Part shown: positions 3,211 through 36,261 of the stretch, one piece after another | Layout of the letters: the number at the start of each line of letters is the position of its first letter | Numbering within the stretch: position 1 is the stretch's first letter | Source: Myxococcales bacterium | Lineage (GTDB): Bacteria; Myxococcota_A; UBA9042; JABWCM01; BTVJ01 | Reading direction: 5' to 3' | Assembly: GCA_045863395.1 (NCBI GenBank) | Contig: BTVJ01000056.1 | Location: 1 to 49,603, forward strand | Length of the DNA stretch: 49,603 bases | The notes under the pieces: model-generated | Seen by the model: only the letters and a program-made list of their open reading frames with translations | Told to the model about the DNA's origin: nothing | Database searches by the model: none | Made by a program: the position numbers and the translations under genes

Positions 3211-4558
3211 CGTGCTGCCTCCGGCGCCAGCTCTGGGCCTCCTCCACCGTGCCCGTCGTGATCACCTCGTAGAGCACCGCCTGCTTGTCCCCGTCGCGGC
3301 GAAGGATACGCCCCAGCCGCTGCACGTGCTCCCTCACCGTGCTGGTCCCGGACAGCACGATGCCCACTGCCGCCGACGGCACGTCCACCCCCTCGTTGAG
3401 CACCCGGCTCGTCACGATGGCGCGCAGCGTGCCATCACGAAAGCGGTCCAGGATCTCCTTGCGCTCCTTCGCGTCGGTCTGGTGGGTGATCGCCGGCACC
3501 AGCAGGGTCCGCGAGATCAGGTAGGCCGTGCGGTTGTCGTTGGTGAAGATCAGCGCGCGGTCCCCATGGTGGTGGCGGAGCAGCGACTCGACAACCCGGA
3601 GCTTCGCACGGGGAGCCTGGGCGATGCCCTTCTGCTCCCGGTGCGCCTGGAAGGCGCGGCGCCCCGCCCGGCTGCGCGACGCCGCCTGCAGGAAGTTGCG
3701 CCAGCCGTCGTGGCCACGAAGCGAGATGCGGTTCTCGTCCACGAACCCGCGGAACAGAGCCCGCGCCTCGTCGTAGCGGGCGCGCTCGTCGCTATCCAGC
3801 TCCACCTCGAGGGTCTCGACGGTGTACTCGGCGAGGATGTCCCCCCGCAGCTCCGTCACGTCCCGCCGGTAGCAGGGCGGGCCCACGAGAGCATCGAGGA
3901 TGGCGTGGGCGCCGTCCTCCCGCTCCAGGGTGGCCGTCAGGCCCAGGCGGAACGGCGCGAGGGAGCCCTCCGCCGCCTGGGAGTAGGCAGGACCCGGCAA
4001 GTGGTGCACCTCGTCGAAGATCAAGAGGCCGAAGCGGTTGCCCAGGCGCTCCAGGTGGATATAGGCGGAGTCGTAGGTGGTGACCGTAACATCCCGGAGG
4101 TCGTAGTTCCCTCCCCCGACGAGCCCCACCTCGATGCCGAAGGCCATGCAGAGGCGGTCGTACCACTGGTTGAGCAGCTCGATGGTCGGCACCACTACGA
4201 GCGTGCTCCTCTGTGCCGCAAGCATGGCAAGCTCCGCCACGTAGCTCTTGCCGGCGCCGGTGGGCAGCACCACGGTTCCACGCCGCCCGGCGGCGACCCA
4301 CGCAGCGACGGCCTCCGTCTGGTGGGGGAACGGCTCCCGGTGGGCGTGGTGGACGAGCGACAGGGTGGAGAAGGCGCGGGCCTCGTCGGTCCAGGGGGCG
4401 CGGGCGCGGTGCAGGGCGGTGGCGACCTCCCTGTAGCAGCGGGCTGGCGCGCGCAGGCGACCGACGCGGGGGTCGACGACGAATCCGTCGGGCAACCACC
4501 CGTCCTCCGGGGTGCCCTCGATGAGCAGCGTTCCCTTGTCCCAGCGCAGAGTGATCAT
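3197..4558 (-). CDS. XPB/Rad25-like superfamily 2 DEAH-type helicase
   Basis: LPTGAGKS (motif I), DEVHH (II), LTAT (III), LNEGVDVP (V), QRLGRILR (VI). Confidence 0.92.
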   Translation of the reverse strand: MITLRWDKGTLLIEGTPEDGWLPDGFVVDPRVGRLRAPARCYREVATALHRARAPWTDEARAFSTLSLVHHAHREPFPHQTEAVAAWVAAGRRGTVVLPTGAGKSYVAELAMLAAQRSTLVVVPTIELLNQWYDRLCMAFGIEVGLVGGGNYDLRDVTVTTYDSAYIHLERLGNRFGLLIFDEVHHLPGPAYSQAAEGSLAPFRLGLTATLEREDGAHAILDALVGPPCYRRDVTELRGDILAEYTVETLEVELDSDERARYDEARALFRGFVDENRISLRGHDGWRNFLQAASRSRAGRRAFQAHREQKGIAQAPRAKLRVVESLLRHHHGDRALIFTNDNRTAYLISRTLLVPAITHQTDAKERKEILDRFRDGTLRAIVTSRVLNEGVDVPSAAVGIVLSGTSTVREHVQRLGRILRRDGDKQAVLYEVITTGTVEEAQSWRRRQHDAYR

Positions 4559-4736
4559 GAGCTGCCGACCCTAACGTGCCTGTGCCCTCGCGTCCAGGCC
4601 CGCCCTCGGGGCCGGCGCGACGGGCGCAACGGGGCGCGTGCTCGTCCCCCTGCGCCCGACGTTGCCCGCGTTCTCGGAGCGCCCCGTCTGTGGCGCTGCG
4701 TACAGCCGGGGTGTATCCTCCCGGGCCGGAGGCGCG

Positions 4737-5045
4737 ATGAGGCGGCTGTTTGCGACAGTGATGGTCCTCGTGGGGTGCGACGTCCAGCCCGGCGCGGGGG
4801 ACGAGTGCAGCTCGTTCTCGGGCTCGGACTGCGAGAAGATCGTGCAGTGCTGTGACTTCGTCCAGTCGAACAACCCGAGCGGCACGGCGGCGCAGGCGTG
4901 CGTCCTGAAGCGACCCGTCGCGGCCGCTGCGAAGGCGTCGGGCGACCCGACCGACGATGCCCAGTGCGCGACCATGGTGAAGGACGCCGCCTTCGCCGAG
5001 TGTGAGCTGACGTGCGAGAGCATATCGGCATCTGGAGGTGACTAG
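4737..5045 (+). CDS. Small Cys-rich lipoprotein
   Basis: GGAGG RBS; MRRLFATVMVLVGC lipobox; 8 further Cys; stop overlaps the next start codon. Confidence 0.7.
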   Translation: MRRLFATVMVLVGCDVQPGAGDECSSFSGSDCEKIVQCCDFVQSNNPSGTAAQACVLKRPVAAAAKASGDPTDDAQCATMVKDAAFAECELTCESISASGGD

Positions 5046-23896: not shown

Positions 23897-24258
23897 GGCT
23901 GGGGGGCTCGTCTGGCCCGGGCGACCGCATCCTGCCCGGTGCTGCCGCGCCTGTCGAGCGGGCGGGGCACGGGGTTGTAGCTGGCCAGGACCAGGGGCAG
24001 CCATGCAGCGGCCGCAGTCCCACCCTGCAGCCGTCGTCCTGTGCCTGGCACGTCTCCCGCCCGACCGCTCCGCAGCCATCCGTTGCCCACGCCGCGGCGC
24101 CGTGGCATCATCGCCCGCCGCGAAGAGCCCCATCGTGGTGAGGGACCTTGCGGCCACGGGCGTGCGGACTCATGGGCCGGATGGAGGCACAGTCGCAGCT
24201 TGCCCCGAACGAGCGCCGTGACCGGGCGCCTGCCAACGGACGAGGCGGAGAGGCTGCC

Positions 24259-24939
24259 ATGAGGACCAGGGAGGACGTGCTGCGGCTCATCGACGAGGAC
24301 GCCCGCCTGCGCGCGGCGTGGGGCCGCGCCACGAAGGAGGACCACGGCGACGCGGCCCACGACGTGGAGCACCTGCTCCGGGTGGCCCTGTGGACCGTGC
24401 GCATCGGGGGCGCCGAGGTGGACCCGCGTGAGGCAGTCGCTGCGGCCCTGCTCCACGACGTGGTCAACGTGCCCAAGGACTCGCCAGACCGCGCCCTCGC
24501 GTCCGCCCTGTGCGCCGAGGAGGCGCGCCGCGTCCTCGCCGAGGCCGGGTTTCTCGCCGACGCGGTCGACCGCATGGCGGGCGCCATCCTCGATCACAGC
24601 TACTCCAGGGGCGCCACGCCGCGCTCCCCGCTCGGGCGCGCCCTGCAGGACGCAGACCGGCTGGAGGCCCTCGGGGCGCTGGGCATCATGCGCACCATCT
24701 CGACGGGGGCGCGCATGGGGTCGCGTTACAGCCACCCGAGCGACCCCTGGGCCCTCGGGCGCCCGCTCGACGACGTCGCCTTCTCCGTGGACCACTTCTT
24801 CACGAAGCTCCTGGGGCTGGCGGCGACCATGTGCACGGAGACGGGCCGCGCGGAGGCTGCACGCCGCACGACCCACATGCGGGCGTTCCTCTCTCAGCTC
24901 GCCGACGAGCTGGGCGCCCCGCTGCCCGAGACCGTGTGA
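24259..24939 (+). CDS. HD domain phosphohydrolase (YedJ-like)
   Basis: DAAHDVEH..RV, AALLHD, HSYS, LQDADRLEALGA.G, DHFFTKLL. Confidence 0.9.
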   Translation: MRTREDVLRLIDEDARLRAAWGRATKEDHGDAAHDVEHLLRVALWTVRIGGAEVDPREAVAAALLHDVVNVPKDSPDRALASALCAEEARRVLAEAGFLADAVDRMAGAILDHSYSRGATPRSPLGRALQDADRLEALGALGIMRTISTGARMGSRYSHPSDPWALGRPLDDVAFSVDHFFTKLLGLAATMCTETGRAEAARRTTHMRAFLSQLADELGAPLPETV

Positions 24940-25012: not shown

Positions 25013-26710
25013 TCACGCGCGCCGCGCCGACTCCGAGAGCCGCACGATGCCCGTCACCCGGTCGCCGATCTCCTCCATGTGCGTGATCATGTCGAGAAAC
25101 GCGAGGCCCGTCTTGAGGTCCTCGTGGAAGGACGACATGTCCTCGATGTGCTTGGCGCGGAGGTCACGGCGCGAGTCGTCGATCTCGTGCTCGATCTCTT
25201 CGGCGCGCTTGGCCGGGCTCCCCTCCGCCAGGTAGACACCCAGGTTGGCGAGCGCCCGGTCCACCAACGCGCCGAGGGCCACCAGCTCGGCGATGGTCTC
25301 GGGGGTGAAGCGCCGCCCCGACTCGTAGTTGCGGCGCGCGATCCGGACCATGACGGCGCAGTGGTCCGCGATGCGCTCCACACGGTGGGTGTTCTGGATC
25401 AGCGCCGCGATGCGCCGGCTGGTCTCGGTGGTCGTGGAGGACTGGGCCGTCAGGGTCAGGTGATCGATGATCTCGCGCTCCAGATCGTCGCAGACCGCCT
25501 CTCGCTCCAGGGTGCGCTCCACGAGCCCCCCGAGGTCGCGGTCCGGGTGGGTGATGATCTCCATGGCGTCGCGGAACATGGTGCGCGCCTCGTCGGTCAT
25601 GCGGCGCAGCTCCTTGCCTGCCTGCACCAGCAGGAGCTCTGGCGTCTCGATGTAGGCCAGCGAGAGGTGCTGGGCGCGGCGGACGACCGGGGCCTCCTGC
25701 GCCGACGGTACCCACCGGCGGACGATGCGCTCGATCACCCCTACGAAGGGCACCAAGATCGTTGTGTTGGTGACGTTGAACAGCGAGTGGAAGGCGGCGA
25801 GGTGCATGCTGACGACGCCGGCCGCCGCGGCATCTCCCCCGCCCGCGCCCAGGGCTCCGTGCGGATCGCCCGGTACCAGCAAGTCGACCACGGGCAGGAG
25901 GTAGACGTGCATCAGCGCCAGGGCCCAGGCGGCGCCGAACAGATTGAACAGGGTGTGGGCCCGGGCCGCTCGCTTGGCGTCGACGCTGGCGCCGATCGCC
26001 GCCAGGTTGGCGGTCGCGGTCGTGCCGATGTTCTCACCGAGCACCATGCCGACGGCGACCTCGTAGTTGATCCATCCCACCGCGGCGAGGGTCAGCGTGA
26101 GGGTCGTGGTGGCGGAGCTGCTCTGCAGGACCACGGTCAGGGCAGTCCCCAGGGCCATGAAGAGCAGGACCGAGCCGAAGCCATAGCCGGAGATCTCGCC
26201 GACCCACGCGAGCTGCTCCGGATCGTCGATGGATGGCACCGCGTCCTTGAGCAGGGCCAGCCCCAGGAAGAGGAGCCCGAACCCGACCAGGGCCTCGCCC
26301 CAGAGGCGCCTCTGCTCGGTCTTCAAGAACGACATCAGGAACCCGATCCCGATGGCGGGCAGAGCGAAGGCCGCGATCTTCACCTTGAACCCGAAGACCG
26401 CGACGATCCACGCGGTCATGGTCGTGCCGATGTTGGCGCCCATGATCACGCTGATCGACTGGGTGAGGGTGAGCAGGCCCGCGGTGACGAAGCTGACCAC
26501 CATGACGGTGGTCGCGGAGCTGGACTGAACGGCGATGGTGACCCCGACGCCCGTCGCCACCCCGCTCAGCCGGTTGGCCGTCATGCGCCCGAGCAGACCC
26601 TTCATGCGGTCGCCAGCCACGTTCTGCAGGGCCTCGGACATGAGCTTCATGCCGAGGAGGAACACCCCAAGCGATCCCAAGAGCTCGAGCAGGCGGCTGA
26701 CGGCGGTCAC
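25013..26710 (-). CDS. Na+/Pi cotransporter with C-terminal PhoU domain
   Basis: Two QSSSATT repeats, GANIGTT and GENIGTT, multiple TM helices; PhoU-like ERIADH and EEIGD. Confidence 0.93.
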   Translation of the reverse strand: MTAVSRLLELLGSLGVFLLGMKLMSEALQNVAGDRMKGLLGRMTANRLSGVATGVGVTIAVQSSSATTVMVVSFVTAGLLTLTQSISVIMGANIGTTMTAWIVAVFGFKVKIAAFALPAIGIGFLMSFLKTEQRRLWGEALVGFGLLFLGLALLKDAVPSIDDPEQLAWVGEISGYGFGSVLLFMALGTALTVVLQSSSATTTLTLTLAAVGWINYEVAVGMVLGENIGTTATANLAAIGASVDAKRAARAHTLFNLFGAAWALALMHVYLLPVVDLLVPGDPHGALGAGGGDAAAAGVVSMHLAAFHSLFNVTNTTILVPFVGVIERIVRRWVPSAQEAPVVRRAQHLSLAYIETPELLLVQAGKELRRMTDEARTMFRDAMEIITHPDRDLGGLVERTLEREAVCDDLEREIIDHLTLTAQSSTTTETSRRIAALIQNTHRVERIADHCAVMVRIARRNYESGRRFTPETIAELVALGALVDRALANLGVYLAEGSPAKRAEEIEHEIDDSRRDLRAKHIEDMSSFHEDLKTGLAFLDMITHMEEIGDRVTGIVRLSESARRA

Positions 26711-26955
26711 GGCGTCCTCTCCCTCGTGGTTCGGGGCGCTGCCGAACGCGGGTCCCTGGCACTTCAGACCCCGGCCGCGGTGTGCTCGACACGCCGGCGC
26801 GACCCTAGCCGCTGTCGATGGACCACGTCAACCACGACCGCTCCGCGCGTGTCCCACGACCCGTAACCCGCGGAAACTGCTGGCACAGCCAGGGTCGACC
26901 GGCACGGGTCGCAGGGGCGGGGCGCGCTCGCGGTCCCTTCCGCGAGGCACGAGGT

Positions 26956-27690
26956 TCAGGGCTCCATGCCAAAGCGGCGCCGCCAGGCCGCGTAGGCTGG
27001 CAGCAGCTCGGGGGCGGCCTGGGCGAGGGCCTCGCCCGTCCGCTCCACGGCCGCTCGCTCCAGGCGCAGGTGCTCACCGTGACCCGGCTGCCCGGCGCGT
27101 GTGTCGCGTGGCCCATCGAGGCGGACCGCAGGGTCCGTCACGGGGTGCGTCTCCTCGTGGAGGATCTGGCAGATGACCTGGTCGGGGGGCTCCGCGAGGC
27201 TGGTCGCCACCACCCGCTGGCCCCGGACGGTTGCCGCCCGGCCATGGCCCCGAAGGGACGGCGCGTGCAGGACCCGCAGCGGCGGCGGTCTACCCGGAGC
27301 CCACAGGGCGGCACGGACGCGCTCGATGGGGGCGGAGAGGGAGGCGCCCGACCAGCGGGCCCCTCCCCGCGCTGCATGCGCGGCGGACGACTCCCGCGCG
27401 GCCTCCACGAACAGCGCCCCCAAGGTCCGCCCGGCGGGGTCGCCGAGCGCAGGGGTCCGGGCGAGGAGGGAGACGAGCGCCCCGACGTCGCGCTCGTCGT
27501 CGGCCAGCCACAAGGGCGCCCAGTGCAGCCACAGGCGGCCCGGGGCCGCGGCGTAGGCGTCGAGCAGGGCGCGGGGGGCGGCGGGCAGGAACGGATCCCA
27601 CACGGAGGCGGCGTCGGCCCCCAGGTCCAGGCGCGCCAGCACGTAGAAGGCGAGGTCCGCAGCGGGGCACTCGACGAACCGGATGCTCAC
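26956..27690 (-). CDS. HExxH-motif protein (possible metallopeptidase), last gene of the radical SAM operon
   Basis: GTGA overlap with the upstream gene; ILHEETH followed by a downstream E (LRLERAA), a zincin-like arrangement. Confidence 0.65.
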   Translation of the reverse strand: MSIRFVECPAADLAFYVLARLDLGADAASVWDPFLPAAPRALLDAYAAAPGRLWLHWAPLWLADDERDVGALVSLLARTPALGDPAGRTLGALFVEAARESSAAHAARGGARWSGASLSAPIERVRAALWAPGRPPPLRVLHAPSLRGHGRAATVRGQRVVATSLAEPPDQVICQILHEETHPVTDPAVRLDGPRDTRAGQPGHGEHLRLERAAVERTGEALAQAAPELLPAYAAWRRRFGMEP

Positions 27691-29855
27691 GGTCCCGGCT
27701 CCCGAAGCCAGCCCTCGCGGCCCGCGACCACCGGCACCTGCGAGCGCGCGACGACCCGCTCAGTCAGCTCATCCCCCCGCCGCACCAGCTCGACCAGGTC
27801 CTGGGGCCGGAAGCGCGGACCGAGCCATGTGACGGCGCGCCCGCCTTCCCGGAGCCGCCCTCGCAGCGCCGCTGGGAACCGGGGCAGCGCCGCCCCGAGG
27901 TACAGGCCGTCCAGGTCCTGCGCCTCGGGTCCAACCGAGGGATCCGCGGGGACGACCCGAACATGCGACGGGAGGAGCGCGGCGAGGCGACGGCGCCCGA
28001 GGAAGCCCGCCGTGGTGCCGGCAAGCACCTCCCCTCCGGGCCCGACCAGCGCCGCGAGGAGCGCCGCGACCCAACCGCTCGCTGCGCACAGGTCTGCCAC
28101 CCGGTCCCCGGTGCCGGCCTCCAGCGCGCCCAGCGCGAGGGCGGTGGGGGTGAAGCCGATCCAGCGCGGCGCCTCCCCCTCCCGGGCGGGCTCGTCCCCC
28201 TGGTCCCGGAGCATGGCGGCAGCCTCAGGCACCCCGAGGAATGGCTCCGGGGCGACCGTCAGGAGCACCTCGACGAGCGCCTCGTTGCGCAGGGCGCCCC
28301 GCTCCAGCAGGCGCCGCACGGCCTCCTCCCGGCGCCGCACCCGCTCGTCCCGCACGTGGAGCCCGATGGGGGTGGCGATGTCCAGGGCGACGCTGTCCCG
28401 GGCGGGGGCCGCCTTCTTCAGGATCATGTCCCGGTTCTCGGGGCTCAGGGTACGCACCTGCTCCGCCATGCTGCGCTCGAACACCCGGTCCACGCTGCGC
28501 CCCTGTCCCCGGAACCGACCCGCGATCTCCCGCACCAGAGGGCCGTAGGCGTCGTGCATGAAGCGCACCCGGTCCGCGAAGGACAGCGCGCCGCTCGGAT
28601 CCAGGTGCTCCGCGCGCAGCGGCCCGTCGTACCAGGCCCGCCACCACTCGCGGTGGTGGAACCGCGCCCCGTGGGCCGCCTCCAGCGCGTCCATGGTCTC
28701 GTACACCATGGACCCCGGGTACAGCCGGAAGGGGTCGATGGAGAGCCACCCGCAGGTCTCCCGCGCCGACGTGAACAGGTCGGTCAGGAAGGCGTGGGTC
28801 TCCCGCAGGGTCTCCGGAGTCTCTCCTGGGTGGCCTACGATGACGTTGGTCGCCCAGGTGAGGCCGTGGTCGCGGCTCCGCGCCGCCAATCTCCGAATGG
28901 CCCCCAGATAGCGCTCTGGATCCCGGGTCTTGTTCATGAGGGCGAGCATGGCGGGGCTGCCGCTCTCCAGGCCGATGCCGATGGAGAAGCGCGCCCGCGC
29001 CAGCAGGGCGATGTCCTCGTCGTCCAGGTCGTCGGACCGGGTCAGGGTCCAGAATTGCCGCGGCACGAGCCCGTGGCGCACGATCCCCTCGAGGACGTCG
29101 CGGCGCCACCGGCGCTTGAAGCCGAATAGCGGATCGGCGATGTTGACCACCCAGCGCCCCAGCTCCGTGAAGCGCGCGAGCCGCTTCAGCTCGTCGAGCG
29201 CACGCTCCTCCGACCAGGCGCGCCAGGTGTAGTCGGTCTTTGCGCGCTCCATGCAGAACGTGCAGTGGTAGGGGCACCCCCGCGACAGCACAATCTGGAG
29301 CTTGCGCCCTATCTCATGAGCCCGGGGCCAATATCTCCCCAAGAGGTCCCAGCGCTGGGGGGGCAGCGCGTCGATGGACGGGAGGTTCCGGGGCCCCACG
29401 ATGGGTCCGGGCAGGATCTCGCCCAGACGGCGCCCCCCGAGGAGCCCCTCGACCATCTCACCGAGGGGCACCTCCCCTTCCCCCACCACCACCGCGTCGA
29501 AGGGAGACCCCTCGAACGCGAGATCCCCAGGTCTGGCGCTGGCGTGGTAGCCGCCGGTGACCAGCGGCACGTCCGGGTAGAGCCCCTTGAGGAACCGGCC
29601 GAGCGTCATGACGCGGCGGTAGTCGTAGCTCGAGTAGCAGGAGACGCCAATCAGCAGGAAGGGGCCGAGCTCCTGGAGGGTCCGCTGGAGACCGGCGTGA
29701 TCGCTGGCCTCGTAGCCCAGGTCCAGGATCTCCACACGGGCGCCGGTGCGCTCCTTGACCCACGTCCCGAGGCTCACCAGGTGAGGGAGCCCGAAGTCCA
29801 CGTCCGTCCACTTGAGGATGCCGGGGCTCAACAAGAGGACGGCGGGCCCCCTCAC
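27687..29855 (-). CDS. Cobalamin-binding radical SAM protein fused to a degenerate protein-L-isoaspartate O-methyltransferase (PIMT)-like domain
   Basis: B12 domain IGVSC, VTGGYHAS, VVGEGE; SRGCPYHCTFC; IGLESGS, IVGHPGET; C-terminal VAPEPFL, GDRVADLCAASGWVAALLAALVGPGG, LREGGRAV. GTG at 29855 overlaps the upstream stop. Confidence 0.88.
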   Translation of the reverse strand: MRGPAVLLLSPGILKWTDVDFGLPHLVSLGTWVKERTGARVEILDLGYEASDHAGLQRTLQELGPFLLIGVSCYSSYDYRRVMTLGRFLKGLYPDVPLVTGGYHASARPGDLAFEGSPFDAVVVGEGEVPLGEMVEGLLGGRRLGEILPGPIVGPRNLPSIDALPPQRWDLLGRYWPRAHEIGRKLQIVLSRGCPYHCTFCMERAKTDYTWRAWSEERALDELKRLARFTELGRWVVNIADPLFGFKRRWRRDVLEGIVRHGLVPRQFWTLTRSDDLDDEDIALLARARFSIGIGLESGSPAMLALMNKTRDPERYLGAIRRLAARSRDHGLTWATNVIVGHPGETPETLRETHAFLTDLFTSARETCGWLSIDPFRLYPGSMVYETMDALEAAHGARFHHREWWRAWYDGPLRAEHLDPSGALSFADRVRFMHDAYGPLVREIAGRFRGQGRSVDRVFERSMAEQVRTLSPENRDMILKKAAPARDSVALDIATPIGLHVRDERVRRREEAVRRLLERGALRNEALVEVLLTVAPEPFLGVPEAAAMLRDQGDEPAREGEAPRWIGFTPTALALGALEAGTGDRVADLCAASGWVAALLAALVGPGGEVLAGTTAGFLGRRRLAALLPSHVRVVPADPSVGPEAQDLDGLYLGAALPRFPAALRGRLREGGRAVTWLGPRFRPQDLVELVRRGDELTERVVARSQVPVVAGREGWLREPGP

Positions 29856-30916
29856 GAGACACCCCCGCCACGGCCCGCTGAGACAGACTGGCGCAGGAAG
29901 GGCTCCGGGTCCACCAGAGAACCAAACGCGGCGAATCCGCTCTCCTTGCACCCCCCCTGGCAGGCGCGCTCGAAGCGACAGCCCCGGCACATCGCCGGCA
30001 CGGACCGGGGAAACTCCCGGAGGTAGGGAGACGCCATGATCTCGGCCCAGGGCTGGCGCAGGACGTTCCCGAGCACGTGGCTCGACAGGTTGCAGCTCCG
30101 CACGTTCCCAAGAGGATCGAGCACGATGTTGGGAGACTGACTCCCCACGCTGCAGAACCCGAACTTCACCCAGGAGTAGCGCTCCAGGCGCACGAGGCAG
30201 GGGGGGATCGGCATGGCCGTCGAGACGCGGATGCCCCAAGCGCGCCCGAGCCGCTCCGCGGAGTCCAGATTCTCTTCGATCCGGGCCGCAGACGGGACCA
30301 TGGTGTCGATGGCGCGGGCAGCCGCCCCGGCCGCCGACATGCGGTTGTAGCTGACCGCGCGCACCCCGAGGGCGAAGCAGAGCTCCAGTACGCCCGGGAA
30401 GTCCTCGCAGGAGTCGCGGGTGGCGACGAAGCACACCTGCGCCGGGACACCTGCGTCCTGCAGGTCCACGATGGCGCGGACGGTCTCGTCGAAGCAGCGC
30501 GCGCCCTTGCGGCGGTCGTGGCGGTCCCGGTCGGCGCTGAGCAGCGTGAGCTGGACGGCGCGGACCCCGAGCGACGCAAGCCGCTGCGCCGTCTCGACCG
30601 GCACGTGGCTGCCGTTGGTGATGATCTGCACCGATGGCACCAGCGAGCAGGCACGCTCCACGATACGCAGCGCATCCTTCCGCAGCAGGGGCTCGCCGCC
30701 GGTCAGCGTCAGGTGCTCGGCGCCGCTCCCGCGGACGGCCGTCTCCAGCATGGCGAGGGTGTCGTCGGTGGAGAGCTGCCCCCGTGGGTAGCCGCCCTGC
30801 GGCTCGCCGTCCTTGGCGCCCCACACGTTGTAGCAGTGCCCGCAGGCGTGGTCACAGCCCGTGGTCAGCTCGAAGTCGAGCCGCGGGATGCTCGCCGAGC
30901 CCGACAGGACGCTCAT
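29852..30916 (-). CDS. Radical SAM/SPASM domain protein
   Basis: CDHACGHC, LTGGEPLL, ITNG; SPASM C...GNVRSC...LGNV...CRGC....CQGGC; no N-terminal PqqD/RRE extension. Confidence 0.93.
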   Translation of the reverse strand: MSVLSGSASIPRLDFELTTGCDHACGHCYNVWGAKDGEPQGGYPRGQLSTDDTLAMLETAVRGSGAEHLTLTGGEPLLRKDALRIVERACSLVPSVQIITNGSHVPVETAQRLASLGVRAVQLTLLSADRDRHDRRKGARCFDETVRAIVDLQDAGVPAQVCFVATRDSCEDFPGVLELCFALGVRAVSYNRMSAAGAAARAIDTMVPSAARIEENLDSAERLGRAWGIRVSTAMPIPPCLVRLERYSWVKFGFCSVGSQSPNIVLDPLGNVRSCNLSSHVLGNVLRQPWAEIMASPYLREFPRSVPAMCRGCRFERACQGGCKESGFAAFGSLVDPEPFLRQSVSAGRGGGVS

Positions 30917-31659
30917 GCGCGGGGGCGGTCCCGCAGGCGGGCGAGCAGGTCGGGCGGCAGGGCACCGGACGCCGCCAGCCGGGCGCGGGCCTCGGCGCGG
31001 GCCACCTCGCGGGGCGGCAGCGCAGGCGCAGGGGCCATGGTCGTCTCACCGTCCGATGCGTCGGCCGGTGGCGCGGACAGGCAGGGGCCAATGCCGGAGT
31101 CCTCGGGGCCCACGTCGCTGAGGCAGGGGCCCACGTCCCAGGCGCGGGACAGGCACGGGCCCACGTCGCTCTCGGCATCCGGGCCCGCGTCCCACTCGGG
31201 GGTGAGGCAGGGGCCGACGTATGTGTCACCGCCGTCGCCCGAGTCCGGGCCGGCGTCCCAGCGAGGCTGGAGGCACGGGCCCACGTCCCAGGCGCGGGTC
31301 AGGCACGGGCCCACGTCCTCGTAGGGCATCCCGAGGCAGGGGCCCACGTCCTGCCGCGGCGAGAGGCAGGGGCCGACGTCGTCGATCCGCTGGGACAGGC
31401 ACACCCCTACGTTGGTGTCCATGTCCGCGTCGGGCACATCTGGATCGTAGACCGCGGACAGGCACGTCTGCGCGCAGCCCGTCTCGGTCGTCGTGATGCC
31501 GGCGATGAGGGCCACGGCGGCGAGGACGCTGACCACCGCCCCCGCGACGCCCCCGACGACGGACACCGTGCAGGCTGCGGTCGTCGACAAGGCGAGCAGC
31601 ACCCCGGCGCCGATCAGCAGCCGCCGGCGCCAGCGCTCCATGCGAGAGAATCCGGACAT
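30913..31659 (-). CDS. Membrane-anchored repeat protein with (D)VGPCL cores; putative radical SAM substrate/precursor
   Basis: AGGAGG RBS before ATG 31659; two N-terminal hydrophobic segments, each ending in Cys; 8 GPCL motifs plus VGVCL and QTCL; ATGA overlap with the SPASM gene. Confidence 0.8.
   Translation of the reverse strand: MSGFSRMERWRRRLLIGAGVLLALSTTAACTVSVVGGVAGAVVSVLAAVALIAGITTTETGCAQTCLSAVYDPDVPDADMDTNVGVCLSQRIDDVGPCLSPRQDVGPCLGMPYEDVGPCLTRAWDVGPCLQPRWDAGPDSGDGGDTYVGPCLTPEWDAGPDAESDVGPCLSRAWDVGPCLSDVGPEDSGIGPCLSAPPADASDGETTMAPAPALPPREVARAEARARLAASGALPPDLLARLRDRPRA
31079..31413 (-). repeat. Coding repeat AGGCA(G/C)GGGCC(C/G)ACGTC (= DVGPCL on the minus strand)
   Basis: Copies start at 31079, 31121, 31151, 31205, 31271, 31301, 31334, 31364 and 31397 (degenerate); all spacings (30-66 nt) are multiples of 3. 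Confidence 0.9.
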
Positions 31660-31869
31660 GGGGACCTCCTTGGGGCACAAGTCGCCACTACTATGGACTC
31701 ACGGTCGATGCCTGGTCAATGAACCTCTGCTCCCGGCGACTCGCTCGGTTGCGCCCCACGGGGCACGGCCATCACTGGCGTCCGTTGGGGATGGCAGGAG
31801 TCCGCCGATCCGGGCGCCCTCGACGCCCGCCGGGGCGCCGTCGTAGGATGGCTGCCGGAGGTACCCCCC

Positions 31870-32883
31870 ATGACCAACGTGCTTCGGACGACCGAGACGG
31901 CCTGGACGGACTACAAGAAGGAGCCCGGATTCGGGTGCGACCTGATCTCGCTCCACTCCTTCCCTCTCGTGACCCTGGGCGTGAGCCTGGAGCAGCTCCC
32001 GCCGGGCAACGCGATCTGCCCGCTCCACTACCACATGGTCGAGGAGGAGCACCTCTACGTCCTCGAAGGGACCCTGACCGTCCGTGAGCTGCTCCCGGAC
32101 GGGACCCACCGAACGTTCGACGTCCATGACGGCGAGCTGATCGCCTGGCCAGGGGGCACCCGGATCGCCCACCAGACGCAGAACCGGGGTGATCGCCCCG
32201 CGCGCTTCCTGGCCATCTCGGATACCTGCCCGCAGGAGGTCGCCTTCTACCCGGACAGCGGCAAGGTGCTGCTCCGGGGCGCCGGCATCGGCGTGTTCAC
32301 CGAACGAGGGAAGACGGCGCTCCCGCTGGACGGGCACTTTGCCGCGGCGCGGGCAGCCACGGCGCACCCGGCCACGCCAGTCGCAGACGACGCGCGCCCG
32401 CCCCACGTGGCAGGCCCGGCGCAGGTCCCCGAGCGCGCCCTGGGGCTGGGCGGCTTCGGGCGCCCCCTCGCCCGGGCCGCGGGCGCACAGTCCGTGTTCG
32501 TCAACGTGGACCGCCTCCCGCCGGGCGCCCGCACCCCGGACCTGCACGCCCACCTCGCCGACGAGGAGCTCGTCTACGTGCTGAGCGGCCACCCGACGCT
32601 CCGACAGATCCGCGGGCGGCGCGAGGGGCGCACGCCGGTCTTCGACGCTGCAGCGGAGCGCGTGCCGCTGTCGCCCGGCGACGCGGTCCACTGGGCCCCG
32701 GGCGATCTCGTGGCGCACCAGATCCTGAACGAGACCTCGGAGGACACCCACCTGCTGGTGATCGGCACCGACTGCGCGCGCGACATCGTGCTGTTCCCGG
32801 AGCGCGGCGAGATCTACGCGGCGGTGATCGACACCCTCGGCTCCCTGGGGCACACGGACTACTTCGCGGGCGAGTCGCGCTGA
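31870..32883 (+). CDS. Tandem (bi-)cupin domain protein
   Basis: Two cupin motif sets: HYHMVEEEHLYVLEG...AHQ and HAHLADEELVYVLSG...AHQ; GGAGG RBS. Confidence 0.88.
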   Translation: MTNVLRTTETAWTDYKKEPGFGCDLISLHSFPLVTLGVSLEQLPPGNAICPLHYHMVEEEHLYVLEGTLTVRELLPDGTHRTFDVHDGELIAWPGGTRIAHQTQNRGDRPARFLAISDTCPQEVAFYPDSGKVLLRGAGIGVFTERGKTALPLDGHFAAARAATAHPATPVADDARPPHVAGPAQVPERALGLGGFGRPLARAAGAQSVFVNVDRLPPGARTPDLHAHLADEELVYVLSGHPTLRQIRGRREGRTPVFDAAAERVPLSPGDAVHWAPGDLVAHQILNETSEDTHLLVIGTDCARDIVLFPERGEIYAAVIDTLGSLGHTDYFAGESR

Positions 32884-33506: not shown

Positions 33507-33645
33507 CGCTCCGGCTCCAGTGTGCGAGCGCCGCCCACGGGGCGCGGAGCCCACCAGCCCATCGAGCGGTTCCCGCGCCGCCCTCCTGGTGCTATCCTGG
33601 CCCCCCCGGTTCAGCACGCAGCAGTCCGCCGGGGGCGAGGATGCC

Positions 33646-36261
33646 ATGGCCGATCCCATCTCCAGACCATTCCCGGCGCCGCGCACGGTGTACGGGACCA
33701 CGACGCCCTTCGTCGGGCGCACCGCCGAGGTGGAGGCCCTCTACACGGCGCTGCGAAAGGTGGCGCTCCGCAAGCGCCTGCGCCACGTGAGCGTCCACGG
33801 GCCCGCGGGCATCGGCAAGACGCGCCTCGTCGAGGAGCTGCTGTCGATCATCGGGCTCCGAGCCCGCGGCATGACCGTCTACCGCGCTACCTTCCCCTCG
33901 ACCGTGCACGCGCCCGCCTTCGCCGTCCTCTCGCAGATGATGGCCCAGCGCTTCGGCGTCGCCGGCGTCGACGAGGACGAGGTGGTCCGGTCCACGGTGC
34001 TCGACGCGCTGTCCACCACCCTGGACGCCCGGCGCGTGCGAGACGCCTGGCACCTGCTCGCCTACCTGCTGGAGCTGCCGCGCGACAAGGACGCGGGCGA
34101 CGCGGAGTGGGGGGACGTTCCGCGCCGGGCGACCCAGCTCGCCCACGAGCTGCTGCGGGTAGACGCCGGCTCGGGGACCCTCGTGCTGGTCCTCGACCGA
34201 TGGGAGCAGGCCTCTCCAGCGGCCCGTCAGGGGCTGGCCGACCTGGCAGAGGCCCTGGCGGACGTCCCGGTGCTCCTGGTGACCCTGTCGCGAGAGCCCG
34301 TGGAGTGGCGCCCCCCCGAGGGCACGCGCTTCATCCGCCTCCCGCTCCCCCCCATCACGCCCGCGGACGTGGAGCGGCTCCTGTCTGCCTTCGTGCCCCC
34401 GGGGAGCCGGGTGCCGCCGCGGCTCGTGTCGCTCCTGTCCGAGCGCGCCAGCGGCAACCCGCGCCACGTCGAGAACCTGATCCGCCTGCTGGTGAGGCGG
34501 GGCGTCCTCGCCTTGGCGGAGGACGGGTTCCGAGTGCGCCTCGACCTGCTCGAGAAGGCGCCCCTCCCGGCGACCGCCGATGCCCTGGCCCGCGAGCGCG
34601 TCGGCGCCCTGAGCGGACCGGAGCGCGACGCACTGACCGCGGCGGCGGTGATCGGTTCTACCTTCTGGCTGGGGGCGGTCCGCTCCATGCTGCGGGGCGG
34701 TGACGCCGCCGTCGTGGCCTACGACCTGCTCGATGATCGCTCCGACCTGGCGCTCCACGAGACCCTCGGCCGGCTCATGGAGGCGGACCACGTCCGCGCC
34801 GAGGGCCGGTCGACGGTCCAGGGTGACCAGCAGCTCGCGTTCGTGAACCCCGACGAGCGCCACGCCCTGCTGGAGTCCGTCGAGGCCGGCCAGCTCCGCC
34901 GCTTGCACCGCCTGGCCGCGCAGTGGATGGAGGGCGCGCGCCCGCACGAGCCGGTGCCCTTCTACATCGCCACGGCGGCGCACCTCCAGGCAGGGCGGCG
35001 GCCCAACAGGGCCGCAGTGGCGCTCCAGAAGGCGGCGCAGGGGGCGCTTGCAGCCCAGGACACGCCGCGCGCCCGCACCCTGCTCCAGCGGGCCCTGGAG
35101 ATGGCGGACACGGACCAGGCAGCCGCCAAGGCGTCCATCGCCTTCGATCTGGCGTGGACGACCCTGATGGCCGGCGCCTACGCCGAGGCGGAGGCCCTGT
35201 ACCACCGGGCAGCCGCCTTCGCGTCGGTGGTGAGCGATGAGCGACTGATGGCCCGATCCGCGAACCACATCGGCAAGGTGGAGCTCGCCCGCGGGCGCTT
35301 CGACGCGGCCCGCGCCGCGCTGGACCGCGCCTTCGAGCTGTTCGAGCGGGTCGAAGACATGGACGGCATCGCGTCGGTGCGCGAGGACCTGGGCAAGCTG
35401 ATCTGGCACCGCGCCGCACCGGGCGCCTACAAGGAGGCCCTGGAGTCCTTCCGGCGCTCCCTGTCGCTCCGCCGCTCGACCGGGGACAAGAGCGGCATCG
35501 CCCGCTCCCTGACGCACATCGCCAACATCCAGGGCCTGACGGGGCGCATGGCCGAGGCAGAGAAGGCCCACCGGGACGCCCTGACGCTGCGGCGTGAGGC
35601 GGGCGACCGCCGGGGCGAGGCCATGACCCTCAACGGCCTCGGCGTGACGCTGGCCGAGAAGGGCGTCCTGGACGAGGCGCTCACCCTGTGGGAGCGGGCG
35701 CGCGCCATCGCGACGGACGTAGGAGACCGCACCCTCTACGCGCTGGTGCTCGGCAACATCGCCGAGGCGCGCATGGGCCAGGGCGCCCTGGACGAGGCGG
35801 AGCGCCTGCTCACCGAAGCGGAGGACACGGCCCGTGACATCGGCAACACCCGCATCCACGGCTACGCCCTCCAGACCCACGCGCAGCTCCTGCAGAAGCG
35901 GGGCGACGTGGACGGCGCCATCGGGAAGGTAGGCGAGGCGGTCACCATCGGCGAGCAGACCGGCAACCGGCACCTGCTCGCCACGTGCCTGCGCACACGG
36001 GCGCAGCTCGCGGCATCCCGCCTCAACCCGACCGGAGACATGACGCTGCCCGTGGGCACCCCTGCCTTCGTGGAGGACGCCATGGAGGACCTGACGGCGG
36101 CGCTCCGCATCTTGGAAGAGCTGGGCGACATGCCCGCCCTGCACCGCACATTGGACGTGAAGGCGACCATCTTGGAGGGGGTCGGGCTGCTCGGAGAGGC
36201 GCTGCCACTCCGGCTGCGTGCGAGAGAGATTCGCAAGCACCTCGGCTGGAAGGGTGCCTGA
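33646..36261 (+). CDS. AAA_16/STAND-like ATPase with C-terminal TPR array
   Basis: PFVGR..E, GPAGIGKT Walker A, LVLVLD Walker B, SGNP motif, then multiple TPR-like repeats (NHIG, NGLG, GNIA). Confidence 0.88.
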   Translation: MADPISRPFPAPRTVYGTTTPFVGRTAEVEALYTALRKVALRKRLRHVSVHGPAGIGKTRLVEELLSIIGLRARGMTVYRATFPSTVHAPAFAVLSQMMAQRFGVAGVDEDEVVRSTVLDALSTTLDARRVRDAWHLLAYLLELPRDKDAGDAEWGDVPRRATQLAHELLRVDAGSGTLVLVLDRWEQASPAARQGLADLAEALADVPVLLVTLSREPVEWRPPEGTRFIRLPLPPITPADVERLLSAFVPPGSRVPPRLVSLLSERASGNPRHVENLIRLLVRRGVLALAEDGFRVRLDLLEKAPLPATADALARERVGALSGPERDALTAAAVIGSTFWLGAVRSMLRGGDAAVVAYDLLDDRSDLALHETLGRLMEADHVRAEGRSTVQGDQQLAFVNPDERHALLESVEAGQLRRLHRLAAQWMEGARPHEPVPFYIATAAHLQAGRRPNRAAVALQKAAQGALAAQDTPRARTLLQRALEMADTDQAAAKASIAFDLAWTTLMAGAYAEAEALYHRAAAFASVVSDERLMARSANHIGKVELARGRFDAARAALDRAFELFERVEDMDGIASVREDLGKLIWHRAAPGAYKEALESFRRSLSLRRSTGDKSGIARSLTHIANIQGLTGRMAEAEKAHRDALTLRREAGDRRGEAMTLNGLGVTLAEKGVLDEALTLWERARAIATDVGDRTLYALVLGNIAEARMGQGALDEAERLLTEAEDTARDIGNTRIHGYALQTHAQLLQKRGDVDGAIGKVGEAVTIGEQTGNRHLLATCLRTRAQLAASRLNPTGDMTLPVGTPAFVEDAMEDLTAALRILEELGDMPALHRTLDVKATILEGVGLLGEALPLRLRAREIRKHLGWKGA

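Follow-up and report, generated by a model that had tools for sequence, protein, structure and literature searches.

Radical S-adenosylmethionine (SAM) tailoring of ribosomal products is a main source of new peptide chemistry, and nearly all of the products studied are short secreted leader-core peptides. Radical-SAM enzymes of the SPASM type most often make Cys-to-carbon thioethers or other peptide and protein cross-links; QhpD, the enzyme that introduces cross-links into the gamma subunit of quinohemoprotein amine dehydrogenase, and PapB both join Cys to Asp or Glu. Class B radical-SAM enzymes mostly methylate unactivated carbons. In several classes of peptide that are synthesized by the ribosome and modified after translation (RiPPs), O-methyltransferases of the protein isoaspartyl methyltransferase (PIMT) type form aspartimide (lasso peptides, graspetides, lanthipeptides, and imiditides), and the type is also known from the FxLD system. 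Here, we describe a four-gene cassette on the minus strand of contig BTVJ01000056.1 from a Myxococcales bacterium (assembly GCA_045863395.1), at positions 26956..31659 of the 49,603-nucleotide stretch that was analyzed (the window). It encodes P0001, a precursor or substrate protein of 248 residues (30913..31659) that is acidic, Pro/Gly-rich, and predicted to be disordered; P0002, a radical-SAM/SPASM enzyme of 354 residues (29852..30916); P0003, a B12-binding radical-SAM enzyme of 722 residues fused to a PIMT-like domain (27687..29855); and P0004, an HExxH protein of 244 residues (26956..27690) from an unannotated family with a predicted zincin-like fold. By contrast with the short peptides studied so far, the candidate substrate is a long, repeat-built, membrane-targeted protein, and two different radical-SAM enzymes stand together, one of them fused to a degenerate methyltransferase domain. 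On balance, we read the cassette as a self-contained, translationally coupled maturation unit whose substrate is the product of its own first gene, modified at each repeat, most likely in a way not yet described, and attached to the envelope.

Judged from its sequences, the cassette appears to act like known radical-SAM maturation systems but fell outside every named family tried, namely the sacti-/ranthipeptide maturases, the Scm and GeoRSP systems, the named B12 families, active PIMT, and the qhp context. As in the QhpD/QhpC system, the SPASM enzyme would act on a protein and not on a short peptide. QhpC has several Cys residues a few positions before an Asp or Glu, to which they are thioether-linked, and its product exits the cytoplasm; in P0001, an Asp lies exactly 6 residues past the Cys in 6 of 9 repeats (at +3 or +7 in the others), a weak likeness because the region is Asp-rich. 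Unlike the QhpD/QhpC system, the cassette has no dehydrogenase subunits (qhpA/B) or other qhp genes conserved nearby, the protein to be modified is disordered, built of repeats, and lipoprotein-like at its start, and the cassette includes the additional B12-radical-SAM and HExxH proteins. In freyrasin (PapB), a Cys...Asp motif is likewise repeated and each unit is cross-linked. The ranthi- and sactipeptide maturases StsB, SkfB, and AlbA are among the closest sequence matches of P0002, yet these matches lie far under the curated cut-offs; unlike in those systems, P0002 is without a RiPP recognition element (RRE), and P0001, with its 248 residues and predicted membrane anchor, is not a leader-core peptide.

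The other enzymes have equally partial counterparts. P0003 shares the B12-binding and radical-SAM architecture and the CxxxCxxC motif with B12 radical-SAM C-methyltransferases of peptides or antibiotics of the TokK (7kdx), TsrM (6wte), ApyD, and PoyC type, but it reaches no family cut-off, and no C-terminal PIMT-like or HExxH fusion was found in the literature searched. Its PIMT-like domain is homologous to PF01135 and, as with RiPP PIMT enzymes, belongs to a peptide-modifying cluster rich in Asp substrates; unlike those enzymes, it is fused to a radical-SAM enzyme, has lost its motif in 60 of 65 orthologs, and is absent in some relatives. According to a published account (PMC12636437), HExxH proteins of RiPP clusters can be alpha-ketoglutarate oxygenases, some of them radical-SAM-fused, and in the ChlB (8s5f) and PflC/PosC oxygenases the HExxH domain is likewise coupled or fused to a radical-SAM enzyme within a peptide-modifying cluster; P0004, by contrast, has no family-model match in Pfam or NCBIfam and only a weak structural match to 8s5f. 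Bufferins (PMC12452194) are Cys-modified in the cytoplasm, start with an export signal, and function in the envelope, as we propose for P0001, but they use MNIO enzymes in place of two radical-SAM enzymes and have no repeats, lipobox, or tail. The original prediction had not recognized this combination as a described class. No description of the cassette, the lipoprotein-like Cys-Leu-repeat substrate, the B12-radical-SAM-(pseudo)PIMT fusion, or the HExxH family was found in NCBIfam (including its curated families), Pfam, open-access papers, or bioRxiv, a search that did not cover subscription journals.

Layout and conservation of the cassette

All four minus-strand open reading frames (ORFs) were confirmed by reading the sequence at the coordinates given. 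Successive genes overlap by 4 nt on the minus strand (ATGA at 30916-30913 for P0001/P0002, GTGA at 29855-29852 for P0002/P0003, and GTGA at 27690-27687 for P0003/P0004), and the starts of P0002, P0003, and P0004 each sit within the stop codon of the preceding gene. The original prediction had already drawn these genes and overlaps, the 8 GPCL cores of the first protein, and the domain content of the enzymes; all of them held, with 1 GVCL and 1 QTCL motif to be added in P0001, the SPASM and B12-radical-SAM-PIMT assignments confirmed by Pfam, and an HEETH motif located at P0004 residues 178-182 (27145..27159).

The same set of genes recurs in dozens of other genomes, an arrangement far beyond chance, and the four genes are one conserved unit. 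With P0003 as the query against 40 related genomes, full-length or near full-length relatives were found in 5 (G023, G020, and G016 at ~60% identity; G009 and G031 at ~37%). A pattern scan with one genome per species gave 78 loci, 73 of which (L018-L090) are true orthologs; L087 was picked up at a looser threshold only, and the filter on third-position GC content (GC3) was relaxed for the lower-GC locus L013. Within the 73 loci, the SPASM gene adjoins in 67, the HExxH gene is present in 60 (same strand in 56, opposite strand in 4), and a Cys-Leu-repeat ORF occurs in at least 61 (60 by script and L059 by eye), most loci lacking a detected repeat gene being contig ends without upstream sequence. 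Homologs of the enzymes do therefore carry the Cys-repeat neighbors that the original prediction had proposed to look for. There are 1-4 precursor genes per locus and 2-13 repeats per gene, a variability that is typical for RiPP substrates.

The loci fall into the window's clade (51-67% identity in P0003) and a distant clade (35-37%; L081-L085 and relatives). Comparison between the two revealed that (i) the gene order is precursor(s)-SPASM-B12/PIMT-HExxH in the window's clade, whereas the precursor(s) lie between the SPASM and B12/PIMT genes in the distant clade; (ii) the repeat consensus changes from D-x-[VI]-G-P-C-L-S-P-P-x-P-D to D-D-A-P-Q-[VI]-C-L-S-P-P-x-P-D; (iii) the basic-hydrophobic-Cys N-terminus is replaced by a twin-arginine translocation (Tat)-type RREFLI or RRAFLI followed by Cys; (iv) the C-terminal tail of the window's clade, with the consensus ..LL..G.LP.DV..RL (hereafter the LPxDVxxRL tail), has no counterpart in the distant clade; (v) the HExxH homolog, encoded on the same strand and with an intact motif in the window's clade, is convergent, ~345 residues long, and altered to HELVLLH or HELVLLQ in the distant clade; and (vi) the PIMT motif is degenerate in the window's clade and canonical in L081-L085. 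The enzyme pair and the repeat protein thus keep each other's company through changes in motif, gene order, and kind of signal, and this is the best argument at hand for the repeat protein as the substrate. From these sequences, we infer strongly that P0001 is the substrate of the cassette enzymes and, weakly, every chemical step and the topology.

The 73 loci come nearly all from metagenome-assembled genomes (MAGs) titled Myxococcota (Nannocystaceae, Bradymonadia, Polyangia, and 'Myxococcales'), and they include a Persicimonas MAG (L045) and the cultured Paraliomyxa miuraensis SMH-27-4 (L036), which opens a way to genetics. With the HExxH profile as the marker, the HExxH family was scored in 30 of 401 sampled genomes of the phylum (25 of the 340 high-quality ones), with carriers concentrated in a few families; the match was single in 29 of the 30 positive genomes and consisted of two adjacent pieces of one match in G141. 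Six MAGs (L040, L041, L042, L058, L059, and L061; 56-59% identity) are titled 'uncultured Enterobacterales' and carry the otherwise Myxococcota-restricted cassette; these titles are probably taxonomic mis-assignments.

The repeat protein and its candidate tailoring enzymes

The repeat region of P0001 (31078..31410), as read from its motifs, consists of 1 GVCL and 8 GPCL units. In a six-frame scan of the window, GPC[LIVM] occurred 11 times, 8 of them inside the P0001 ORF. The repeat DNA has a degenerate 30/54-nt periodicity (TRF), which indicates that the repeats are old and diverged and not a recent DNA duplication. Among 449 repeats of the window's clade, aligned on the Cys, which is therefore constant (100%), Leu follows in 85% and Val in 11%, the preceding positions are Pro (-1, 60%) and Gly (-2, 57%), and Asp stands at +6/+7 in 18-27%; Cys-Leu alone is near-invariant within the unit. 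P0001, whose gene is single-copy in the window's own genome, is predicted to be disordered (predicted local distance difference test score, pLDDT, of 0.42 in its Atlas model), had no match in Pfam (E<=0.1) or NCBIfam, and yielded nothing usable in the Atlas.

The N-terminus of P0001 (residues 1-30; 31570..31659) runs from RWRRR through a hydrophobic stretch to TAAC and reads as a lipoprotein- or Tat-like signal. This start, RWRRRLLIGAGVLLALSTTAAC, has the basic-hydrophobic-Cys layout, with a Thr at position -3 that makes the lipobox non-canonical. It is followed by a second, Gly/Ala/Val-rich hydrophobic segment (residues 31-56) ending in TETGC, a double-segment layout common to 23 of 67 candidate precursors. 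A strict pattern (basic n-region, hydrophobic h-region, and lipobox [LVI][ASTVI][GAS]C; RRxFLK for Tat) was passed by 37 of the 67, 16 of which have RR, and other precursors have a single short K-L-P-P-S-x-L-x-A-L-G-L-x-x-C start. Most precursors would hence begin with a lipoprotein-like signal or, in one clade, a Tat-like one; with a single hydrophobic segment the repeats would be exported, whereas two segments could keep them cytoplasmic.

The C-terminal tail of P0001 (residues 215-248; 30916..31017) carries the motif ..L..SGALPPDLLARL in an alignment of 60 precursor tails, all of which have L20, P21, and D23. The tail's first helix is similar to the helix that opens the P0003 PIMT-like domain (28290-28349), as seen in REVARAEARARLAASGAL versus RVRRREEAVRRLLERGAL; hhalign gave P 5e-4 over 20 columns, the window pair being 45% identical, and of 40 column shuffles 0 scored as high. 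This likeness could reflect mimicry, docking, or common origin, and we treat it as a lead only. Minimal precursors of 84-103 residues are encoded at L059:4145-4456 and 4519-4773; they have a lipoprotein-like start, just two Cys-Leu units, a long (Asp-Thr)n spacer, and the LPxDVxxRL tail, and they may mark the smallest functional substrate.

P0002 matches the Pfam families Radical_SAM (PF04055, 82.8 bits, 4.2e-23), SPASM (PF13186, 27.3 bits vs cut-off 21.5), and Fer4_12. Ten Cys residues are invariant in 62 of 62 orthologs, three from the CxxxCxxC cluster (C21, C25, and C28) and seven from the C-terminal SPASM region (C240, C255, C275, C310, C313, C319, and C323). No RRE/PqqD leader-binding domain was matched by Pfam at E<=0.1, and the radical-SAM domain begins at residue 16 of 354. 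In NCBIfam, P0002 had many weak matches, none near a curated cut-off: the best was StsB (103.8 bits vs cut-off 625; 9.5e-30), followed by AhbD, NirJ, MftC (6e-22), and PqqE (8.8e-22), with SkfB at 57.7 (cut-off 300) and AlbA at 44.9 (cut-off 850). Its top match in the PDB was SkfB (6efn, 1e-14).

P0003 consists of a B12-binding domain (residues 39-133, 29457..29741; PF02310, 42 bits vs cut-off 32.1), a radical-SAM core (residues 188-357, 28785..29294; PF04055, 9.3e-19, 68.6 bits), and a PIMT-like domain (residues ~507-716, 27708..28337) with a degenerate SAM-binding motif I, within which residues 570-699 match PCMT (PF01135, 33 bits vs cut-off 20.3). C194, C198, and C201 of its CxxxCxxC motif are invariant in 54 of 54 orthologs; since the iron-sulfur Cys residues of P0002 and P0003 are all invariant, both radical-SAM enzymes look functional. 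The nearest solved chains are TokK (3.3e-14), AprD4, and the PIMT 2yxe. No curated NCBIfam cut-off was reached, the best match being the PhpK family (71.1 vs 600), with ApyD at 48.2 (vs 750) and the RiPP C-methyltransferase family TIGR03975 at 42.9 (vs 281.85).

The PIMT-like domain aligns with 2yxe over domain residues 9-217 (5e-9) but misses the PIMT equivalog cut-off (36.7 vs 159). Its motif I is vadlCaaSGw (DLCAASGW) where 2yxe, 4l7v, and 3lbf have vleiGtGxGy (E[IL]G[TS]GxGY), and strand 2 ends without an acidic residue, with no Glu where the solved chains have 'siE'. GxGxG is kept in 5 of the 65 loci spanning the region, all 5 from the distant clade, where the domain matches solved PIMTs at 1.9e-21 and keeps velGcGtGy and syEid; the motif is degenerate in the other 60. 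In G016, P0113, and P0129, the B12-radical-SAM enzyme lacks the PIMT domain and is joined without it to the HExxH domain. With the GxGxG SAM loop and the strand-2 acidic residue lost, the domain in the window's clade is probably a non-catalytic remnant and not a methyltransferase, so that the aspartimide or isoaspartate formation envisaged by the original prediction is not supported for this clade. The active-looking domain of the distant clade and its degenerate counterpart form a natural active-versus-dead pair, and the latter is a possible example of an enzyme domain turned docking module.

The unannotated metalloprotein family within the cassette keeps Q-[VI]-[LF]-H-E-x-x-H-x-x-[TS]-D in 52 of 52 full-length P0004 orthologs, in all of which H178, E179, H182, D186, H207, E211, R151, T197, and W236 are also invariant. 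An AlphaFold2 model built with the family alignment (pLDDT 96; predicted template modeling score, pTM, 0.92) has helices at residues 169-188 and 202-225; gluzincin-type metallopeptidases carry HExxH on one helix and a Glu ligand on a later one, and the invariant H178, E179, H182, and E211 may or may not form such a site. A Foldseek search of the PDB with this model gave no match at E<=1e-3, the best being an M61 peptidase (E 0.06). VIA-align Z values of 6.9 for YbeY and 6.8 for ERAP1 lie within the range of chance arrangements, Wss1 has a Z of 5.7, and the ChlB alpha-ketoglutarate HExxH domain (8s5f_E; Z 4.5, root-mean-square deviation 4.8 over 147 residues) fits no better than the peptidases. 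The predicted fold is thus a generic zincin-like arrangement, these Z values do not separate hydrolase from oxygenase, and P0004 could be a protease or an oxygenase; both activities are kept open because HExxH proteins of RiPP clusters can be oxygenases. None of the 52 family members matched Pfam or NCBIfam, nor did the oxygenase model IPR026337 (ChlB/PflC type) surface in these collections, whose inclusion of that model is unconfirmed; a profile of the 52 proteins gave chance-level matches only against PDB sequences; and the Atlas offered unnamed clusters plus leads resembling DUF4932, DUF2268, M61, M48, and M78, all under the naming bar. Among 42 database homologs of P0004, all those with a source name are labeled hypothetical.

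An exhaustive profile search recovered 253 representatives of the HExxH family (E<=1e-3) among 1.84 billion. Natural fusions couple the family to the B12 enzyme: P0048 and P0101 (987 and 970 residues) are B12-radical-SAM-PCMT-HExxH proteins, and P0113 and P0129 (750 and 726 residues), as well as a protein of G016, are B12-radical-SAM-HExxH proteins. The family therefore appears almost private to the cassette and physically coupled to the B12 enzyme. As side observations, the distant-clade HExxH homologs (L084:8076-9113 on the minus strand, L082, L085, and L081) keep a downstream GHxxHxxxE block, and L076, grouped with them, keeps HECCH.

Proposed maturation and competing explanations

The substrate would comprise an N-terminal anchor or signal, a disordered acidic region with 9-10 short units of the clade consensus D-x-[VI]-G-P-C-L-[ST]-P-P-x-P-D, and a conserved C-terminal helix-turn-helix tail. 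In the cytoplasm, the SPASM enzyme would act on each Cys, most likely tying it by a thioether to a neighbor within the molecule, for instance an Asp that lies 5-6 residues downstream, as QhpD/QhpC and PapB do, and the B12-radical-SAM enzyme would alkylate (methylate) an unactivated carbon in the same Cys-Leu unit. The PIMT-like domain of the window's clade, having lost its SAM site, may serve as a non-catalytic substrate-docking or scaffolding module, with the tail possibly also used for recognition. P0004 would be a metal-dependent finishing enzyme, either hydrolytic (removing the tail, for example) or oxidative. The modified protein would then be inserted or exported through its N-terminal signal and remain bound to the envelope, forming a row of small modified loops. 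The original prediction had left open whether the product is released or displayed on the membrane; with no conserved transporter and with lipoprotein- or Tat-like N-termini, release becomes the less likely outcome, and the lipoprotein-like start together with the conserved C-terminal tail favors a modified envelope protein over a released peptide.

Several points weigh against a cassette that cross-links its own envelope protein in this way: (i) all of the proposed chemistry is read from gene families; (ii) Asp is common all along the P0001 repeat region, so that the Cys...Asp spacing may be incidental; (iii) P0002 lies about as far from sactipeptide maturases as it does from AhbD, NirJ, MftC, and PqqE, which are heme and cofactor enzymes, and this makes thioether formation just one option; (iv) no RRE or leader-binding domain by which the substrate might be recognized is detectable in P0002; (v) only the 37 of 67 candidate precursors noted above have a strict lipobox; (vi) in the window-type N-terminus with its two hydrophobic segments, the repeats could be cytoplasmic; (vii) the tail is kept in a genome whose B12 enzyme is without the PIMT domain (P0183), so this domain cannot be the sole partner of the tail; and (viii) the RNA-library contigs described below are suggestive of an expressed operon but are no proof of transcription, since DNA can contaminate such libraries.

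Among the competing explanations, a classical multi-core RiPP, whose GPCL cores are cyclized or methylated before the HExxH protease cuts each one free for release in the form of a small bioactive peptide, survives best, and we consider it rather unlikely. In its favor, the precursor has many repeated cores in variable number, tandem precursor genes and, in some relatives, small precursors of 84-103 residues occur, and the HExxH protein has a zincin-like fold. However, neither a transporter (none in the comparison of flanking ORFs across the 78 loci) nor a second protease is conserved beside the cassette, most candidate precursors open with a hydrophobic stretch, an anchor or a signal, that runs up to a Cys, and the inter-core spacers vary greatly in length and sequence without a conserved cleavage site. 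The HExxH protein, moreover, is without a signal peptide, and the motif of its distant-clade homolog is altered to HELVLLH.

Because only Cys-Leu is near-invariant in the repeats, chemistry centered on Cys and its neighbor rather than on Asp is a serious alternative to the thioether of our proposal. anSME is a SPASM enzyme that has no RRE and acts on proteins. In the explicit form of this alternative, P0002 would oxidize each Cys (to anSME-like formylglycine or another group), or the enzyme pair would build a Cys-Leu-derived structure, with no Cys-Asp thioether. We hold this form to be quite improbable, even though the constant Cys and next Leu/Val contrast with Asp positions occupied in 18-27% of the 449 repeats and P0002, being without an RRE, resembles known RRE-less SPASM enzymes that act on proteins; the repeats do not show the sulfatase signature C-x-P-x-R, and no anSME family appeared in the best 25 of 66 NCBIfam matches of P0002, which is inconclusive.

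A sacrificial-peptide cofactor route of the PQQ or mycofactocin kind, with Cys-Leu blocks cross-linked and then excised by the HExxH hydrolase, seems very improbable. MftC and PqqE are among the curated-family matches of P0002, and the cassette does include a metallohydrolase, but P0002 scores far under the MftC and PqqE cut-offs, a sacrificial peptide needs neither a membrane anchor or signal nor a conserved C-terminal tail, and the neighborhood has no conserved dehydrogenase or partner that would use a cofactor. That the repeat protein is a mere conserved neighbor, such as an envelope or metal-binding protein, while the enzymes act elsewhere is hardly credible: the link between enzymes and substrate is drawn from sequence and gene context, but the P0001 stop and P0002 start codons overlap, the pairing is kept across clades at ~30% identity with a co-varying motif and rearranged order, and no other conserved gene could provide the substrate.

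Taking the preferred reading of a cassette that modifies its own repeat protein to its most specific form, the loci would define an undescribed Myxococcota class of ribosomally made, radical-SAM-tailored envelope proteins, in which the two radical-SAM enzymes introduce a new Cys-Leu-centered cross-link or alkylation into a lipoprotein targeted by Tat/Sec, at as many as a dozen positions, a dead PIMT docking module recognizes a follower tail that mimics its own first helix, and a new HExxH family finishes the product; as a whole, this form is doubtful. The small size of the cassette (four genes), its conservation, and its apparent expression make it a practicable entry to Cys chemistry that may be new, and the system bears on envelope display by little-studied aquatic and wastewater Myxococcota.

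Environmental occurrence, flanking sequences, and variant loci

Metagenomes from wastewater, sludge, bioreactors, and aquatic sites contain DNA near-identical to positions 26000-32600 of the window, which suggests an activated-sludge organism of wide distribution; such DNA was found in 20 runs from 9 studies, one of which may be the source. Seven of the 20 runs are RNA libraries. Four metatranscriptome runs from two studies have contigs that match the operon at 95-100% identity, one contig covering 27746-31592 and another 29353-31717, and the four RNA runs are without cover over ~31718-31867, between the operon and the divergent gene. Contigs of X15 and X18, two runs from one study, stop at 31671 and 31672. 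Upstream of the precursor gene, a sigma-70-like promoter match (TTGACC, 18-nt spacer, CATAGT; 31690..31719, minus strand), identified by consensus only, is the sole promoter-like match in 26650-31900, where shuffles average 0.1, and a Shine-Dalgarno sequence AAGGAGG was read directly at 31665..31671 (minus strand), 5 nt before the ATG at 31659.

The neighboring ORFs encode a multi-pass membrane protein of 565 residues (25013-26710, minus strand) and proteins of 263 (24148-24939, plus strand), 337 (31870-32883, plus strand), and 913 residues (33520-36261, plus strand). These four ORFs are not conserved beside the cassette in other genomes, and the ORFs flanking the window's cassette were matched in 0 of the 78 loci. 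With the ORFs of 8 other loci as queries, the only ones to recur were a metallo-beta-lactamase-fold ORF and an unnamed ORF, each in 12 loci, and a kinase, in 5. The first of these (PF13483, 6.6e-9) lies 5' of the cassette in 12 of the 78 loci, for example at L047:2213-4186 and L060:2607-4070.

Some loci depart from the common arrangement. On a 3.4-Mb contig, L090:6503-8604 has a B12-radical-SAM match that starts from query residue 245 and an HExxH gene, with no SPASM or repeat gene within 6 kb, and may be a decayed cassette. In L019 (= G023:C9), the HExxH gene is on another contig (G023:C396:1947-2684) despite 6 kb of downstream sequence at the cassette. The precursor genes lie 3' of the HExxH gene in L037:8250-9674 and L075:9107-10808 (three of them in L075), so that the gene order is not fixed even within a clade.

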